Shown in pieces: positions 8,829 to 55,057 of a stretch of 64,000 nucleotides of DNA. A model generated the notes under the pieces. That model ran no database searches. It was not told the origin of the DNA and worked only from the letters and a program-made list of their open reading frames with translations. The DNA is from Coprobacillus sp. CAG:698 (GTDB taxonomy: Bacteria; Bacillota_I; Bacilli_A; ML615J-28; CAG-698). The stretch lies in contig HF988734.1 of assembly GCA_000431235.1 (NCBI GenBank), positions 72,647-136,646 on the forward strand, read 5' to 3'. A program made the translations under genes and the position numbers. Every line of letters starts with the position of its first letter. The first letter of the stretch is position 1.

Positions 8829-9738
8829 CGAATATAATAAGTTAATAAAAAAAGCACAAGAGTACGCTGAAAAAGAAGATTACTTAGAAGCAATTGCTAT
8901 ATATAAAATGGCATTTAAATATGAAATACATTCAAATGATTATGCTGATTTAATATATTATTATTTAAGAGCTGATAAGTTAGAAGAAGCTTTAGTGACT
9001 ATAAAGGACTATCTTAAGTTAACTCATGGTGAATATTTAGGATATTACTATTATGGTGAATACTATGCTAAACAAAATGATTATAAAAATGCAATAAAGA
9101 AGTATAAAATAGCTTTACGCAAAGGCTTATGGGAAGTAAACTATAGAATAGGATTTTGTTATCAAGAACTTAGTGAAAATAACCAAAAGTATTTAAACAA
9201 AGCTCTTAAGTATTATAAGAATGTTATAAAAAGAAGTGGCTATGACTATGATACTTATTTCAATATATCTTTAGTTTATGAGCGAAAGAAAAAAATAAAA
9301 AAGGCTTTATCATATGCTTTAACAGCATATTCAAATAATAAAGAATATCCAGATATTGCTTTTAATATTGGAAATCTATATGCAAGACTTAAAGAATATG
9401 AAAATATGGAAAAGTATTACTTATTAGAAATTGCTAATGCTAATCCTAACTATAGAGCCTTTTATAACTTAGCTCTTTATTACAAAGAAATAAAAGAATA
9501 TGAGAAAGCTCAAGAATATTACATCAAAGGATTAGGCTACTGTAAAGATGATTATCGTATATGGTATAATCTTGGATGTTTATATTCAATTATGGAAAAA
9601 TATAAAAAAGCATCTGATTGTTTTTATAGTTCATATTTATTGAATGATAAAACTATTGACTATATAATAGCAGATGATGAAACACAAGAGTTTATTAAAT
9701 CTTCAGAGTTTGAAGACTTGAAACATAAAACAAAATAA
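8818..9738 (+). CDS. Tetratricopeptide (TPR) repeat protein
   Basis: Repeated A/Y-rich ~34-aa TPR-like units (YYxxGxYYxKQxxYxxAIKxY...). Overlaps the upstream gene by 11 nt. Confidence 0.55.
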   Translation: MESNEYNKLIKKAQEYAEKEDYLEAIAIYKMAFKYEIHSNDYADLIYYYLRADKLEEALVTIKDYLKLTHGEYLGYYYYGEYYAKQNDYKNAIKKYKIALRKGLWEVNYRIGFCYQELSENNQKYLNKALKYYKNVIKRSGYDYDTYFNISLVYERKKKIKKALSYALTAYSNNKEYPDIAFNIGNLYARLKEYENMEKYYLLEIANANPNYRAFYNLALYYKEIKEYEKAQEYYIKGLGYCKDDYRIWYNLGCLYSIMEKYKKASDCFYSSYLLNDKTIDYIIADDETQEFIKSSEFEDLKHKTK

Positions 9739-40213: not shown

Positions 40214-40311
40214 ATAACTTTCCTCCGAATATATATAGTTTACCATATATTTGTGTTTTCTTCAATAAATGAATTGAAAAAAAATAAAAAATGATATATA
40301 ATAAGTCGGAC

Positions 40312-40400
40312 AATTTAAATGGGAGCTTCGGCTGAGAGGTTACGAAAGTAACGACCATCTAACCTGATCTAGGTAATGCTAGCGTAGGAATTTAAATTTC
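40312..40400 (+). ncRNA. TPP (thiamine pyrophosphate) riboswitch
   Basis: Conserved THI-box elements GGCTGAGAG ... AACCTGATCTAGGTAATGCTAGCGTAGGAA. Promoter TTGAAA-N17-TATAAT at 40282-40310. A T-tract terminator-like platform precedes thiT. Confidence 0.8.
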
Positions 40401-40453
40401 TATACACATATAGCATTCCAAAAACTATTTTTTGTTTTGGGAGGTTATTAATT

Positions 40454-49598: not shown

Positions 49599-50270
49599 AT
49601 GTACAAAGCATTACTTGTAGATTTAGATAATACATTATTAGATTTTAATAAAGCTGAAGAGAGAGCTCTTACGACTACGCTCTTAAGATATGGACTAAAT
49701 GATACAAAAGAAATAAAAGAAGAATTTAAAAAAATAAATAGTAAGTATTGGATGATATTTGAAAAAGGTGAAATATCTAAAGAAGATCTTTTAGTACAGA
49801 GATTTAAAGATTTCTTTGAAAAATATATTCCTAATCCTAAGGCAAAAGAAATAAACACTTTTTATCTCAATCAATTAGCTGAATCAGGTGATTTAGTAGT
49901 GCATGCACTTGAAACGTTAGAAACTATCAAAGATAAGGTTAAGATTTATCCAGTAACTAATGGAGTATATAACACACAAGTTAGGCGCTTAGAAAAATCT
50001 GGTTTGAATAAATTTTTTGAAAAAATATTTGTTTCTGAAAAAATAGGATATCAAAAACCAAAAAAAGAATTCTTTGATTATGTCTTCAATAATATAGAAT
50101 ATAATAAAGATGAAGTTTTATTGCTTGGTGATAGTTTAACAGCCGATATCATAGGCGGAATAAACTATGGTATTGATACATGTTGGTACAATCCTAATCA
50201 CTTAAGTAGTAATCTAAAAATAACGTATGTTATAGATGATTTATTAGATTTAATAAAACTTATAAAATAA
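49599..50270 (+). CDS. HAD-superfamily hydrolase (YjjG-like nucleotidase subfamily)
   Basis: Motif I DLDNTL and motifs III/IV (LGDSLTADIIGG). 223 aa. Confidence 0.7.
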   Translation: MYKALLVDLDNTLLDFNKAEERALTTTLLRYGLNDTKEIKEEFKKINSKYWMIFEKGEISKEDLLVQRFKDFFEKYIPNPKAKEINTFYLNQLAESGDLVVHALETLETIKDKVKIYPVTNGVYNTQVRRLEKSGLNKFFEKIFVSEKIGYQKPKKEFFDYVFNNIEYNKDEVLLLGDSLTADIIGGINYGIDTCWYNPNHLSSNLKITYVIDDLLDLIKLIK

Positions 50271-50318
50271 ATGAAAATTTCACTTGATATATATGGATAA
50301 TTATGGTAAAATGTAGGT

Positions 50319-50429
50319 GTGAGACTAAAAACTCATTCCTAAGAGATTTTAAAATCTATATATTATATATTTAGGATAAGTATTATGTAGTGAAATGTAA
50401 AACTCTCTTAGGTAAAAGGGAGTTTTTTT
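50319..50429 (+). ncRNA. Candidate small structured RNA with own promoter (TTGATA-N17-TAAAAT at 50284-50312) and intrinsic terminator
   Basis: Long-range complementarity CCTAAGAGA (50338-46) / TCTCTTAGG (50407-15). Terminator CTCTCTT-aggta-AAGGGAG followed by TTTTTTT. Confidence 0.3.
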
Positions 50430-50680
50430 GCGAGTAGACTATTTAAATATTTTGATATAAAAATTATGATTTAAAAATATTAATAGAATAACATAAAGAT
50501 TTTTGAGTGTTGTAAAAATAGATTATATTATATTTAATGCATATAATAATAATGATAAAACAGTATGAGGAGGTAGTGTATGAAAATTTATCTTGTATTA
50601 AAGAAAATCATCAAAGAGTTTGTTAGCCATGGCATACGGCTAAAAGTATGCCACTAAAAATTAATGAAAGGAGTGAAAGA

Positions 50681-51778
50681 ATGAAAAAAATAATATCTTT
50701 AATTTTAATAGTAATGTTTGCTATGTGTTTATTAAGTTGTAATAATGCCAATAACAACGAAAATACAAATCCTAAAACAACTGAAAACACAAAAGAGAAT
50801 GAAAACACAAAAGAAAACGAAAACAAAGGAAAAGAAGAAGTAAAAAACAACGAAACAAAGAATAATGAAACAGAAAAAAATGATGAAAAAGATATTTTTC
50901 CTGAAGAAAATAAGCTAACTGAACAAGAGATAAATACTATTAACAATTTATATTTAATAACTTCATCTGGTTCTTGCACATTTGGAAGTGAATATTCATT
51001 TGCAAATAATCTTTCTCTTTATAAAGAAAAAAAGAAAAATATATACTTGATAGATTATGAAGCAAGTTTTGAAAGATATCTTTGTGGATATATACCTATA
51101 GAAATTTACACAAAAATGAGTGAAGAATCATTGTTTGACCCAATGCATTGTGGAGGCTCTGATGTTTTAAATAGGTATAAAAAATATCTTAATAAGTTAG
51201 ATATTAATGGCTTTGGTACAGATGATATTATCTGGACTAGTTATATGTCTATGGATGATATTAAATTTGTATATGATGATAAGTATGTTGCTCAACTTAT
51301 TTTAGTGGAAAGCAAAGTCAAAATAATTACTGATTTATATGGTAATGAAATAAATCAAGAAGTATTAGATTTATCACCAATAGCATATAGAGTAAAAGAT
51401 AATAACTTTAGAATCTTAGGTGCAATAAATATACTAGATAGTAGCAAATATATTGTTAATACAAAATACTATGAGAGTTTTGAGAATGTACCATTCCTTG
51501 ACATTGTAGATGCATCGACAGCCTATCCACTTCCTGCATATCTAGCTAAAGCAGACGAAGATAATAATTTTATGCTACCAATTACCGAACAATATGGTTC
51601 TGAGCCCACTGATCTAGTTGAATATATCTTCAAAGAACATGCAGATAAGTTTAGAGAATGTATTGTAAAAACGGAGGATATTTCAAGAAATGTTAATGGT
51701 AAGGATGTATTTTTCAAAAGAATAGGATATTTTAACTTTGAAAAGTATAGAAATGTAATAATTTCATTAATGCAATAA
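50681..51778 (+). CDS. Lipoprotein with Asn/Glu/Thr/Lys-rich repeat linker, hypothetical
   Basis: RBS AAAGGAG. Signal peptide plus lipobox LLSC. ENTKEN tandem repeat. Lies 25 nt upstream of the metalloprotease gene. Confidence 0.6.
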   Translation: MKKIISLILIVMFAMCLLSCNNANNNENTNPKTTENTKENENTKENENKGKEEVKNNETKNNETEKNDEKDIFPEENKLTEQEINTINNLYLITSSGSCTFGSEYSFANNLSLYKEKKKNIYLIDYEASFERYLCGYIPIEIYTKMSEESLFDPMHCGGSDVLNRYKKYLNKLDINGFGTDDIIWTSYMSMDDIKFVYDDKYVAQLILVESKVKIITDLYGNEINQEVLDLSPIAYRVKDNNFRILGAINILDSSKYIVNTKYYESFENVPFLDIVDASTAYPLPAYLAKADEDNNFMLPITEQYGSEPTDLVEYIFKEHADKFRECIVKTEDISRNVNGKDVFFKRIGYFNFEKYRNVIISLMQ

Positions 51779-51803
51779 AATAAGCGTAAGGAAGGAGAAT
51801 TAA

Positions 51804-54542
51804 ATGAAGCTTTTAAGAAAAACAATTTTAACTACTATAATTATTTTATTTGTCGTCTTATCTTTTGCATCAATTAAGAATTATGTATACGCACATAACG
51901 CAGATTTAGATGTTGAATATGATATATGTGATCTTGATGAGGGAAATTTGTGGTATTATATCTCATCACAAAAATATGTATCATATCCACATGGGGAAAG
52001 AGTTTACTATAAAGATTTAACACATCTTAGTCAGGAAGTTACTACTATTTCATATTATATAAATAATAACTCAAAAGACAATGTAAATTATACGTGGACT
52101 ACAAATTTAACTGAAGAAGAAGCATTGAATGTAAAACAAACATTTGTTAATAGTATGTTAAAATGGAATGATATTTACTATTATTCTTATGATCAACAGG
52201 GTAATAGAGTAACTAATAAAGTAATTAATATCGTAGAAACATTAGAAAAAAATAATGCTGAAATTGTTATATATCCAAAATATGAAGTCAAAAATGATGA
52301 TGGGCTGTATTATGCATGCACTTCACAAGAAAGTGAACCAAATACAATTGAAGAAGATATAAAAGAAGAAGGCTCTGAAAATTACTCACATTCACATGTA
52401 TTAAAATGGGATATTGAAGTAAATTTATATATGTATAATCCACGAGAAGAAGAATTTTCCCATGTGAGTAAGGTGACTGGAGAGCATGAAATAGGTCATG
52501 TACTTGGACTTCGAGATGTTGATACAATATGTGATCATTATTTACCTCAACATTCAGAATTATTGATGGGATATGGAGGTACTTCTAATAGCCATGTAAC
52601 ATACGCAACATATAAAGATATTGCAGGTGTTAGTATTACTAGAGGGTTTCACGATGTCGACGACCATATATGGATGAAAAGGATTAATGATGATGGATCA
52701 ATAGATTTGATTTGTGCGTTGTGTAATGGCATTATGAAAAACATAACACTAGATTCTAATGGATTAACATATAATGGAAAAATGATAAACAAATATAAAG
52801 ATTGTATCCATTACGGAAAATATAATTCAAATATGCTATTGGTTGCTACTGACGGAATTAGAAACTTCTTTAAATGTTTAAACTGCAGACACATAGATAC
52901 TATTGAAATTAATAATGAATATAATTTATTAAATGAATTAACAATGATTAATGATTCATATAATATTAATGCGGGTAAAAAGAATGTTTTTAAATTGAAT
53001 ATTGATAGAACAAATTTATATGAAATACTTCTTAATTCAACATCACCAAGTGAAATTAGACTATATGATGAAAACTTTAATAAAATCACAACATTTAGTT
53101 CAGTAGATAACACTACTTTGATAACTAATAAAATTCTAAATGCAGGGACTTATTATATAGAAATAGAAAATAAAGGAACAAATAGTGCTAATTATACAAT
53201 GAAAATTATATTTGATAATTCTGTGGATTTACGTGAAGAACGCAACAATATATTATTAAATATTAATAGAGGAATTGGGAATTATCGCTATTATAATACT
53301 AATGGTGCAGGGTTTTATAAATTTTCATTATATGGTACAAAAACAGATAATTCTTTAATCACTTATCCATCAGGTTCATTGAAAATATATGATAATGCTT
53401 TAAAGAATGTATTAATGAATAAATATAATTTAGATGTTATATCAAATTATGCCCAAAGTAAATATAATGAGAATAGCATAATTGTATATTTATCAAGAAA
53501 CGATTATTTCTTTTTAAATATTGATATTCCTGCTAATGATTTATCAAGTTTATACTTAGATATTACACAATTAGAAAATCAGGAAATAAATTTGTTTAAT
53601 TATTCTGAAACGTCAGACCAAACGCAAAACATTTTAAATATAAATAGCAAAGGAGACTATTTTAAGAAAATATTAATTAAGCAAACTGGAAAATTTGTGA
53701 TTTACACAAATTTTGAAGTCCAAGGAAATAATAATATTATATTTGTCTTGCTTAAACTAGATTATGATATCTCTACCAATACATCTACAACTACAACAGT
53801 AATAGAAAAAGAACTAACAAACGAGTATGATTCATATCAAACAACAGTTTCATTAACTGATGGAACGTATTATATAGGATATTTTGATAAATATGACTTA
53901 AGTAATTTTAGGGTTTCATTTAAAAGATTGATTTCTTTATCTGGTGGAGATGCTCTAGTCACAGATCCAGATAGTGGCACTTTGTGCGGTAGTCAGATAA
54001 ATATAATCGAAATGAATAAATCTAGTAAAAGTTATAGAGAGACATATATTACTAGATATTTCACGAGAGTTATTTATCCTGATTCTAACTTGGGAATATC
54101 AAACTCAAGACTAGATTATAATTGGTATTCAAGTGATGAAACAATAGCTACAGTATCTTCATACGGAACAGTTTTTGGTAAAAATTTTGGTACAGTTAAA
54201 ATTATGGCAGTTTTAAAGAATGACCCTTCAAAGACATTTGTCAAAGAATTTTCGGTTATTGATGATATAGCAGCAAATCCTTTGACTATCATTAATACAT
54301 ATACAGTTAAATTTACAGATAGAAGAAACTTTAAAATTAATTTTGAAAAAATTAATTGCCCATATCCATGGATACAATATTATAACTGGAGCCTTGATAC
54401 AAAATGTCATAATAGCAAGATAACTGTTTCTATGGATAAATGGGGAACAATAAAAGCTGATGATAGGGGATGTTTCACATTGACTGGTTCGTATACATTG
54501 AATACAAGAATTACGATTAAAATACATGTTATAATATCATAA
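51804..54542 (+). CDS. Secreted metzincin-like zinc metalloprotease (HExxHxxGxxD, snapalysin/M7-like motif) with C-terminal Big_2 Ig-like domain
   Basis: N-terminal signal/TM. HEIGHVLGLRD motif. C-terminal Big_2-like segment (NWYSSDETIATVSSYGTVFGKNFGTVKIMAV). 912 aa. Confidence 0.6.
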   Translation: MKLLRKTILTTIIILFVVLSFASIKNYVYAHNADLDVEYDICDLDEGNLWYYISSQKYVSYPHGERVYYKDLTHLSQEVTTISYYINNNSKDNVNYTWTTNLTEEEALNVKQTFVNSMLKWNDIYYYSYDQQGNRVTNKVINIVETLEKNNAEIVIYPKYEVKNDDGLYYACTSQESEPNTIEEDIKEEGSENYSHSHVLKWDIEVNLYMYNPREEEFSHVSKVTGEHEIGHVLGLRDVDTICDHYLPQHSELLMGYGGTSNSHVTYATYKDIAGVSITRGFHDVDDHIWMKRINDDGSIDLICALCNGIMKNITLDSNGLTYNGKMINKYKDCIHYGKYNSNMLLVATDGIRNFFKCLNCRHIDTIEINNEYNLLNELTMINDSYNINAGKKNVFKLNIDRTNLYEILLNSTSPSEIRLYDENFNKITTFSSVDNTTLITNKILNAGTYYIEIENKGTNSANYTMKIIFDNSVDLREERNNILLNINRGIGNYRYYNTNGAGFYKFSLYGTKTDNSLITYPSGSLKIYDNALKNVLMNKYNLDVISNYAQSKYNENSIIVYLSRNDYFFLNIDIPANDLSSLYLDITQLENQEINLFNYSETSDQTQNILNINSKGDYFKKILIKQTGKFVIYTNFEVQGNNNIIFVLLKLDYDISTNTSTTTTVIEKELTNEYDSYQTTVSLTDGTYYIGYFDKYDLSNFRVSFKRLISLSGGDALVTDPDSGTLCGSQINIIEMNKSSKSYRETYITRYFTRVIYPDSNLGISNSRLDYNWYSSDETIATVSSYGTVFGKNFGTVKIMAVLKNDPSKTFVKEFSVIDDIAANPLTIINTYTVKFTDRRNFKINFEKINCPYPWIQYYNWSLDTKCHNSKITVSMDKWGTIKADDRGCFTLTGSYTLNTRITIKIHVIIS

Positions 54543-54602
54543 AATTTATGCTTACAACTAATATATCTATATTAAAATAGTAGTCTAACTATAAATTATA
54601 TA

Positions 54603-54643
54603 AAACTGTGAGAAATTGGTATAAACTAACTCACAGTTTTTTT
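54603..54643 (+). terminator. Intrinsic terminator after metalloprotease gene
   Basis: AAACTGTGAG-(17 nt)-CTCACAGTTT followed by TTTT. Confidence 0.55.
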
Positions 54644-55057
54644 GAGGCTGTAAAAAAATAGGTTGATAATTAAAATTAAAAATTTTAATTATTGACGATA
54701 AATCGTCCCTGTCAAGAATTAGGTTGATAAAAAAAGTCAATCAATGTTCATATTATCTGAGTGTTGGTTGGCTTTTTATTGTCATACAAAAATCATTGCT
54801 AGCTTGTTGTTTAAATAATTTTCTGTGTTTGTGAGTTCAATTTTTATAATAATGTAAATTTAAAAGTAAAATTCTAGTTCTTAGTGTGATGTAACGAAAT
54901 CAAATTTTGCTAAAGTATTATAATAGATCATAAATTGAACTTTTTGGATATTGTGTAAATTAACGTGAAATATAATAGTTGAATCACTAATATCTAATTT
55001 TAAAAATAAAAAGAATTAAATGACAAAAATAGATAATCCTAATGTTAGGTGATTAAC

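Follow-up and report, generated by a model that had tools for sequence, protein, structure and literature searches.

What occupies the intergenic region between the HAD hydrolase gene (end at 50270) and the lipoprotein gene (ATG at 50681) of Coprobacillus sp. CAG:698, and does it control the genes that follow, which encode the lipoprotein and a secreted metzincin-like protein of 912 amino acids (aa)? The region was studied within a stretch of 64,000 nucleotides (nt), here called the window, to which all coordinates without a contig label refer. The host, a gut bacterium, forms spores and has a low GC content (28%). CCY08156.1 and CCY08160.1 of Coprobacillus sp. CAG:698 match, with full identity, the MiaB and the 912-aa protein encoded in the window, respectively. 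An initial annotation of this DNA had described a promoter and an intrinsic terminator bracketing a transcript of about 110 nt with internal complementarity, followed by a strong Shine-Dalgarno (SD) sequence and an open reading frame (ORF) of 25 codons. It had left the choice between a small RNA (sRNA) plus leader peptide controlling the protease operon and a small toxin-like peptide. All of these elements were found where they had been placed. On balance we lean towards a conditional transcription-attenuation leader followed by a translated upstream ORF (micro-ORF), which together would gate the expression of prophage or island cargo genes.

A search with the lipoprotein returned only two clusters of 93% identity, which were useless for comparison. 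The comparison was built on homologues of the 912-aa metzincin-like protein (25–52% identity) from uncultured gut Bacilli, and homologous leaders were recovered by nhmmer and a covariance model. The module of promoter, leader, terminator, SD sequence and micro-ORF recurs in at least five other gut Bacilli or phage contigs. The leader is present in the window species, in contigs L099/L100, L103/L104, L105, L106 and L107, and twice in L109 (L109a and L109b); the order promoter, leader, terminator, SD sequence is conserved in eight modules. Two types of micro-ORF were distinguished: type A (MIKIYLxNMVIIFEN..., 28–31 aa, stop codon overlapping the lipoprotein start as ATGA) and type B (MxIYLVLK[KR]IIKE..H.IR, 23–25 aa), the version of the window, L107 and L108. 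This comparison establishes the conservation of the parts, the two folds of the leader, the coding frame of the micro-ORF and the mobile or prophage context.

The leader RNA and its two folds

A sigma-A-type promoter lies at 50284–50312 on the plus strand, as do all features below unless noted otherwise. Its −35 hexamer TTGATA (50284–50289) is separated by 17 nt from the −10 hexamer TAAAAT (50307–50312), and a TG at 50304–50305 provides an extended −10. With a score of 10/12 this promoter alone is not significant: 24 promoter-like sites were counted in 3 kb and 23.6 were expected from shuffled sequences. Of 8 homologous modules, 7 have an equivalent promoter (TTGAC[TA], TTGATA or TTGCAT, N17–18, [TG]gTA[TA]AAT) in the corresponding position; the architecture is position-conserved in L099, L103, L105, L107, L109a and L109b.

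The leader RNA (50313–50432) comprises about 115 nt with a presumed start near 50319. A 114-nt RNA was predicted to fold with −27.3 kcal/mol (z = −3.8), a value that none of 200 shuffles equalled. The intrinsic terminator at 50398–50429 consists of the stem AAAACUCUCUU-AGGUAA-AAGGGAGUUUU (50399–50429) and then UUU, with the end of the U-run at 50429 (−11.1 kcal/mol, z = −3.6). A simple terminator scan of the region did not report it; the inclusion of part of the U-run in the stem is the probable reason.

From 5′ to 3′ the leader contains the hairpin P0 (50314–50341; GUGAG at 50319–50323 paired with CUCAU at 50332–50336 and lengthened by UAGG/CCUA), the 5′ box CCUAAGAGAUUUUA (50338–50351), a central hairpin of the P2 region with the conserved apical sequence UAUUUAGGAU (50356–50390), and the terminator. 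When the leader was folded truncated before the terminator 3′ arm, the 5′ box paired with 50398–50412. The terminator 5′ arm (50398–50412) thereby doubles as the 3′ strand of an antiterminator helix, P1, of which the 5′ box is the 5′ strand. The stretches CCUAAGAGA (50338–50346) and UCUCUUAGG (50404–50412) form a perfect helix of 9 bp. This internal complementarity had been noticed before. The pairing is real, but it appears to be more than that, namely an antiterminator helix in competition with the terminator.

When every leader, that of the window included, was truncated in the same way, P1 formed in 7 of 9 sequences. The leaders of the modules measure about 110–120 nt, and the resulting architecture is P0 followed by P1, which encloses central hairpins with a conserved apical UAUUUAGRAU. 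P1 pairs the 5′ box [C/U]CUAAGA.UAGU with GACU.CUCUUAG[G/A], and its 3′ strand is the terminator 5′ arm. A covariance model (R1) built from five type A leaders with the antiterminator structure recovered the leaders of the window, L008, L097 and L107 at E values of 1e-5 to 4e-3. In alignment A7 the antiterminator fold has 88.5% of its cells paired, versus 36–48% when slid, and 13 pairs change on both sides, a number that 0 of 500 shuffles reached. P0, helix 1 of this alignment, is 91.5% paired with two pairs changed on both sides. The closing (outermost) pair of P1 covaries, being C-G in four sequences and U-A in four. For the terminator fold 93.9% of the cells are paired in nine sequences, and only one-sided pair-preserving changes (U-A to U-G) were observed. 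The terminator 5′ arm is essentially invariant and the 3′ arm varies, a pattern to be expected of a 5′ arm that takes part in two helices. The energy gap between the two folds is at most 2.5 kcal/mol in 5 of 9 leaders, and in three the terminator fold is favoured by 4.6–5.3 kcal/mol. As in attenuation leaders, the intrinsic terminator is part of the 5′ leader, between the promoter and the genes presumed to be regulated; the alternative helix that would sequester one terminator arm is supported by covariation, with the caveats given below.

Could the same conservation arise in a constitutive module that senses nothing? The leader would then be a fixed leaky terminator or a stabilizer of the 5′ end which provides a low basal level of cargo, the micro-ORF would be a device for ribosome loading and coupling, and the conservation would stem from recent horizontal spread and recombination. 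We hold this to be possible and rather doubtful. Cassette shuffling would account for near-identical leaders on very different cargo: leaders of 95–97% identity precede lipoproteins which are only 26–28% identical. Thus, the promoter and leader, with or without the ORF, form a portable cassette. The window leader is 74–88% identical to the other leaders at aligned positions, and the corresponding values are 21–28% for the lipoproteins and 27–44% for the metzincins. A constitutive module would also agree with the failure to identify ligand-like conserved internal loops. For a plain terminator, on the other hand, the C-G/U-A exchange and the 13 pair changes on both sides of the antiterminator fold would be superfluous. 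The invariant 5′ arm opposite a variable 3′ arm points to a doubly constrained strand, the two folds are nearly isoenergetic, and the leaders of the window species and L107 have clearly diverged from type A with their boxes unchanged.

Several observations weigh against conditional attenuation, and the first two of them are also in keeping with a constitutive module. The lipoprotein and metzincin genes of L101/L102 are located behind a plain promoter with neither leader nor micro-ORF. An outer helix, AAACUC paired with GAGUUU, can place a stem beside the U-run in the nested 'read-through' fold of the window, L103 and L109a; therefore, termination could be constitutive. L107 supports P1 poorly, its terminator fold being favoured by 11 kcal/mol, and the leader of L106 has no promoter of its own. 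Strain L008 of the same species has a modified central hairpin, owing to an 11-nt deletion and the replacement of GA by AG, and P1 is kept only via a register shift. The comparison covers about six independent lineages and alignment A7 was fitted to the structure, so that the covariation is suggestive and not of R-scape grade. Transcription start, termination and translation are predictions from the sequence. Finally, no candidate ligand or protein was found for the leader, and no RAT-like or T-box sequence was seen in it.

Whether the RNA acts in cis can be judged from its distance to the next gene. In type A modules, L007-type alleles and L109a the next SD sequence follows the terminator by 10–45 nt, with no recognizable −35/−10 elements between them (judged by eye, without a scan). 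Consequently, the downstream genes should depend on read-through, and for most homologues this short gap leads us to prefer a cis-acting leader over a trans-acting sRNA. The sRNA and leader peptide proposed at the outset are indeed both conserved before homologous lipoprotein-metzincin cassettes, but the RNA is better regarded as a cis-acting 5′ leader or attenuator.

An independent gene for a trans-acting sRNA, alone or in a dual role, seems unlikely to us. The RNA of about 115 nt would act on other targets or on its own read-through mRNA, and a second promoter, in the 134-nt spacer, would serve the micro-ORF and lipoprotein gene of the window. A promoter-like site is present there (TTGAGT-N17-TATTAT at 50503–50531, 9/12); it was found in the window only and could drive the micro-ORF independently, which counts against attenuation as well. 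The clean promoter-to-terminator unit with its stable fold would likewise suit an sRNA gene, and a prophage precedent exists in IsrK of Gifsy-1, where a short RNA is accompanied by a read-through mRNA with an AUGA-coupled upstream ORF (PMC4825925). Against a trans-acting RNA stands the lack of room for a second promoter between terminator and next SD sequence in L007-type alleles, type A modules and L109a. The duplex energies of leader and mRNA were no better than those of shuffled sequences (window, −12.8 vs −13.9 and −11.4 vs −11.2); in seven modules 4 to 36 of 40 shuffles were as good, and no consistent interaction site emerged. No other copy of the leader and no target-like complement was found within the 64-kb window. 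An 8-bp match UCAUUCCU:AGGAGUGA to the lipoprotein SD sequence and a match between the 5′ box and the upstream ORF were rejected as candidates, as leader-mRNA pairing was not above chance.

The 134-nt AT-rich spacer (50433–50566) is confined to the window-type allele, and the window and L107 have no conserved promoter in it. Its 3′ part TGCATATAATAATAATGATAAAAC (50538–50561) is conserved in L107 and resembles the post-terminator box of type A modules. The box reads TGCATATAATAATA[AT]TGATAAAAC in both the window and L107; the L108 contig starts too late to show it. Type A modules carry a fully conserved AU-rich dyad box UUUAUAACAUAUAAUAUAAAUAA between the terminator and the micro-ORF SD sequence (L099 3003–3030, L103 3017–3044, L105 1858–1885, L109 8870–8897), which might serve as a weak promoter with a −10 element only or bind a protein.

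The leader could not be assigned to any known RNA family. A scan of the whole window with Rfam 15 at the gathering threshold gave nothing at the leader, and at E values up to 10 the segment 50200–50750 gave only a chance snoRNA match of 18.7 bits. The homologous leaders in L109 and L103 matched none of the 4227 families of Rfam 15 either. UAG or GAG repeats with HutP/TRAP-type spacing, GGA loops as for CsrA, and T-box features did not, as judged by eye, recur consistently in the homologues. A thiamine pyrophosphate (TPP) riboswitch (RF00059, 60.8 bits) at 40309–40407 (+) is the sole Rfam family that exceeds its gathering score in the window.

The micro-ORF and its overlapping helices

The micro-ORF of the window (50580–50657, 25 codons, MKIYLVLKKIIKEFVSHGIRLKVCH) is preceded by the SD sequence GAGGAGG (50567–50573), 6 nt before the ATG. 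Of the 35 occurrences of GGAGG in the 64-kb window, only this one precedes, at 3–11 nt, the ATG of a 25-codon intergenic ORF. Counterparts of this very strong SD sequence were found in all homologues (GGGAGGUG, AGGAGGUG or GGGGAGG), with a spacing of 6–9 nt in every module. Both the spacing between SD sequence and start codon and the reading frame are conserved among diverged homologues, as is typical of leader peptides.

The type A layout is represented by L099/L100, L103/L104, L105 and the second copy in L109. Its promoter is TTGAC[TA], N17–18, TGgTATAAT, and its leader begins with GGUGUGGGAAAAACUCAUACUCUAAGAUAG and finishes with AGACUCUCUUAGAAAUAAGAGAGUUUUUUGCA. About 30 nt after the leader the SD sequence GGGAGGUG precedes a 31-codon ORF, M[IF]KIYL[ILM]NMVIIFE[NK]..., whose stop codon overlaps the lipoprotein ATG (ATGA), and the metzincin gene is next. 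L106 possesses the leader and a 28-codon micro-ORF; the length difference of 9 nt is in frame and the ATGA overlap is kept. The first leader copy in L109 (L109a) is 97% identical to the L103 leader and stands directly before a different lipoprotein gene, without a micro-ORF. At least 14 unnamed variants of the type A peptide were found in public metagenomes. In public gene calls for P0271, P0275, P0278, P0279 and L100 (3040–3150) the type A ORF is extended to 35–36 aa, with the TGA stop of ATGA read as Trp. Thus, some of those contigs were annotated with genetic code 4.

Orthologues of the type B micro-ORF are (M)TYLVLKRIIKELIGHSIRPEVY in L107 and MLIYLVLKRIIKELVGHSIRPEVY in L108, both behind a GGGGAGG SD sequence. 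Types A and B have the motif KIYLxxx[VK]II[FK]E in common, although their DNA is not alignable above chance. Between the window and L107, codons 1–14 exhibit four synonymous and four non-synonymous changes, the latter including the start ATG to TTG; in the last 11 codons of type B all differences are non-synonymous. Type B micro-ORFs, that of the window included, end 23–35 nt upstream of the lipoprotein ATG. In the window, readthrough of the TAA at 50655 would end at the TGA at 50682, overlapping the lipoprotein ATG as ATGA. The latent ATGA frame, together with a stop codon common to L107 and L108, indicates that the type B stop is derived but conserved. The SD sequence, the in-frame indel, the ATGA overlap, the peptide motif and the synonymous changes are evidence that the micro-ORF is probably translated and selected.

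The 3′ end of the type B micro-ORF (50623–50653) contains two overlapping helices. H1 pairs UUAGCC (50623–50628) with GGCUAA (50638–50643), and H2 pairs UGGCAUAC (50630–50637) with GUAUGCCA (50646–50653). Both are 100% paired in the window, L107 and L108 and include three compensatory pairs, compared with 21–41% pairing in slid controls. The non-synonymous changes in the last codons are thus compensatory at the RNA level. Since the two helices overlap, they probably alternate rather than coexist. Their combination in an H-type pseudoknot was rejected as sterically unlikely by geometric reasoning (loops of 1, 0 and 2 nt). Neither H1 nor H2 pairs with the lipoprotein SD sequence; in the predicted folds AAAGGAG is either free or engaged only in weak long-range pairs.

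The other proposal of the initial annotation, a toxin-like peptide, would make the locus a type I toxin-antitoxin-like pair with the RNA as antitoxin, or the source of a stand-alone cationic toxin or bacteriocin-like peptide. The peptide is in fact cationic (+5) and partly amphipathic, and a small ORF with a very strong SD sequence beside a structured small RNA would be compatible with this idea. The RNA, however, lies upstream on the same strand without overlap, and its complementarity to the peptide mRNA is not above chance. The longest uncharged stretch spans 5–6 residues, and no hydrophobic stretch of transmembrane length was found. In other alleles of this species the ORF ends after 14 codons, with variation at residues 12–13. 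In type A the C-terminus is acidic or polar and the ORF is coupled to the lipoprotein gene. Pfam has no family that matches the peptide. We therefore consider a toxin very improbable. The remaining small ORFs of the region, among them a minus-strand ORF of 118 aa (50623–50979), had no Pfam match.

Cargo genes, island and mobile context

The lipoprotein gene (50681–51778) encodes 365 aa with the lipobox LLSC. Its ribosome-binding site (RBS) AAAGGAG (50667–50673) and start codon span 50667–50683; the ATG at 50681, not the ATG at 50648 of the ORF list, is the true start. The block TGAAAGGAGTGA is conserved in all alleles and also occurs in type A modules, there inside the micro-ORF. The protein has a signal peptide and an L-x-x-C lipobox (MKKIISLILIVMFAMCLLSC), and a Cys at the equivalent position is invariant in nine positional homologues. 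It is a fast-evolving positional homologue of the lipoproteins of 148–294 aa in other modules.

The next gene (51804–54542) encodes the secreted metzincin-like protein of 912 aa with a Big_2 domain. Residues 228–238 read HEIGHVLGLRD and correspond to the zinc motif HEXXHXXGXX(H/D); H228, E229, G231, H232, G235, D238 and M255-G256-Y257, which agrees with the Met-turn expected after this motif, are invariant in 17 homologues. Neither a Pfam peptidase domain nor a sequence match in the PDB was found for the protein, and we would call it metzincin-like at the motif level only. A terminator-like hairpin (AAAACUGUGAG...CUCACAGUUUU, then UUU; 54602–54643) closes the cassette.

Promoter, leader and both genes reside in an inserted segment. 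In sister species (HAD hydrolase of 83, 65 and 56% identity) the HAD gene is followed after 38–50 nt by EamA and suf genes, and the island is absent. A relic of the ancestral HAD 3′ end, aataaaaagaattaa, was found at 55005–55019 directly before EamA. Consequently, the DNA from about 50266 to 55004 is an inserted, strain-variable island. The RNA was also sought downstream of the HAD gene in relatives, where a scan of genome contigs gave only matches of 46% identity or less. The borders of the island fall at about 50264–50271 and 55002–55019, and each junction contains the 8-nt sequence AAAATAAA, perhaps a target duplication or an att core, though it is of low complexity. The 460-nt non-coding right end of the island contains a palindrome ttgataattaaaattaaaaattttaattattgac and the repeated TAGGTTGATAA (54650–54760), which may be an operator or the remnant of a mobile element.

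The island is also the most variable part among strains of the same species. Contigs L001–L008 and L097 represent such strains, L007 and L008 having been obtained via lipoprotein homologues and L097 via a pattern scan. Their flanks are 99.7–100% identical to the window (miaB, cotE and the HAD gene were compared). In L007, L008 and L097 promoter and leader are nearly identical to those of the window as well, an identity that is uninformative within the species because the flanks are already that similar. The L008 leader differs by the changes described above and an extra A; its deletion affects the central hairpin. From the terminator to the lipoprotein RBS, the sequences of L007, L008 and L097 are fully divergent from the window, and in L007-type alleles the intergenic region is about 140 nt shorter. 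Here, GGAGGAG-N7-ATG opens a 14-codon ORF, MQKYLLFKVII[FL][EK]F, with variable residues 12–13. DNA homology between the peptide regions of the window and L007 was not above that of shuffles, and the proposed link is based on the peptide motif and position. The three strains L007, L008 and L097 are without the 912-aa gene. In L001 (4124–6613), a window-type strain, the metzincin-like gene had been called as 829 aa, not 912 aa; this short call and the strains without the gene suggest that the cargo is decaying or variable within the species. L097 carries TGAG instead of GGAG as lipoprotein SD sequence and an in-gene A-run which is one base shorter (9000–9100 and about 8850, minus strand of the locus). 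Its lipoprotein gene is probably a pseudogene, or else this is an assembly error.

The genomic neighbourhoods of the homologous modules are unrelated to each other. Two viral contigs from IMG/VR contain the module: in L109 it lies downstream of a large serine integrase gene, and in L108 upstream of ParB-methylase, portal and major-capsid genes. In L103 two tRNA genes are located directly upstream of the module (2479–2628). Immediately ahead of the promoter, L103 and L109 (5860–5950) have in common a stretch resembling a tRNA 3′ end (gggatttgaa...gggacttgaacc, by eye); this would point to a tRNA as the attachment site of a prophage. The modules behave like phage morons, and in the window such a unit is present as a bare island. 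A search of GenBank phages recovered neither metzincin nor leader. The known distribution of the module is narrow and comprises uncultured gut Bacilli and their phages. The JGI contig L098 contains the arrangement CCUAAGAG...CUCUCUUAGG...GGGAGUUUU at 2164–2258, which scores 31 bits with model R1; its organism reads TGA as Gly, as judged from in-frame TGA codons at conserved Gly positions of leuA. L098 was left out as an independent homologue, for it had been selected by that very pattern, so that the score is not independent and the arrangement may reflect chance or convergence.

Known systems and a possible mode of action

Attenuation leaders of Firmicutes include ON-type riboswitches such as the pbuE adenine riboswitch and protein-dependent antitermination at the RAT elements of LicT/SacY. 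The leader of CAG:698 resembles them in its promoter-proximal position and in its length, about 115 nt. The terminator 5′ arm likewise forms the 3′ strand of a closing helix, and the two exclusive folds are nearly isoenergetic and maintained through compensatory changes. In contrast to these named leaders, it lacks an Rfam match and a RAT-like or T-box sequence.

The closest architectural analogue appears to be the IsrK-orf45-anrP locus of the Salmonella prophage Gifsy-1, in which a promoter-proximal terminator yields a short RNA beside a read-through mRNA, an upstream ORF is AUGA-coupled, and alternative RNA structures occur (PMC4825925). The site in a prophage or island, the short RNA and read-through mRNA, the AUGA-coupled upstream ORF and the alternative structures are all shared features. 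In contrast to IsrK, the modules described here belong to Gram-positive hosts and have no sequence relation to it, and the window allele has lost the ATGA overlap. The middle part of IsrK pairs with about 30 nt of orf45 (PMC4825925), whereas pairing between leader and ORF was not above chance in our modules. Moreover, orf45 is conserved in nucleotides and not in amino acids (PMC4825925), and here the N-terminus of the peptide is conserved across types whose DNA has diverged.

In ermC, cat and vmlR-type attenuation a short ORF with a strong SD sequence lies upstream of the regulated gene, as in the present modules, and vmlR is reported to combine a transcription terminator with such an upstream ORF (PMC9226507), as found here. 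Type B further resembles leader-peptide attenuation in its conserved, mutually exclusive helices in and after the leader ORF. In contrast to leader-peptide attenuation, the micro-ORF is located downstream of the terminator and hence cannot control it. Unlike erm and cat, no helix sequesters the lipoprotein SD sequence, and the cargo consists of a lipoprotein and a protease instead of resistance genes.

Phage morons, as outlined in PMC3594210, are independent transcription units with their own promoter and terminator which lie at the prophage edge and are horizontally exchanged. The present module fits that outline: two IMG/VR contigs have it together with genes for integrase, portal and capsid, and the genome of the window has it as a bare island. 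It differs in that morons are defined by context rather than by any conserved leader structure; here one particular leader RNA and micro-ORF accompany cargo that varies.

In the interpretation that we favour, the locus would control a lipoprotein/metzincin cassette that was acquired horizontally and is of prophage or moron type. Transcription of the leader of about 115 nt would begin at a sigma-A promoter of constitutive appearance, and the leader could adopt two mutually exclusive folds. In the first, P1 would arise from pairing of the 5′ box (C/U)CUAAGA... with ...UCUUAG(G/A); it would close the central hairpin and use up the terminator 5′ arm, and transcription would read through. In the second, P0, local hairpins and the intrinsic terminator would form, and transcription would stop with the release of a short RNA. 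We infer that termination is conditional and that a factor, be it a small ligand, a protein or another RNA, would shift the balance between the folds. The read-through mRNA would carry the strong SD sequence and the conserved micro-ORF. In type A, translation of the micro-ORF would be coupled to the lipoprotein gene via ATGA; in type B the micro-ORF would end within the conserved pair of competing helices H1 and H2. It is conceivable that the N-terminal 14 residues of the peptide might work within the ribosome or serve as a small partner protein.

The kind of control proposed, a terminator/antiterminator leader with an upstream ORF on a prophage moron, is already known. The particular RNA and peptide family are absent from Rfam 15 and Pfam, and full-text literature searches yielded no description of either. 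We regard the module as a solid candidate for a new combination of regulatory RNA and micro-ORF. A more far-reaching interpretation appears improbable to us at present: the leader would represent a new riboswitch-like or factor-dependent antitermination class, by which temperate phages and islands of gut Bacilli switch on lysogenic-conversion cargo (lipoprotein and secreted metzincin) in response to a host or gut signal, and the micro-ORF would add a second layer through its nascent peptide or a micro-protein.

The hosts of the module are uncultured and annotation shows nothing at the site; the 25-codon ORF, which gene callers skipped in the CAG:698 genome, belongs to a conserved peptide family. 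The module is compact, with a promoter, a 115-nt leader and an ORF of 25–31 codons, it can be combined with different cargo, and the two folds lead to predictions that can be tested directly. If the proposed mode of control is true, it would add an undescribed structured leader RNA and a micro-ORF family to the few regulators of prophage cargo in Gram-positive gut bacteria.

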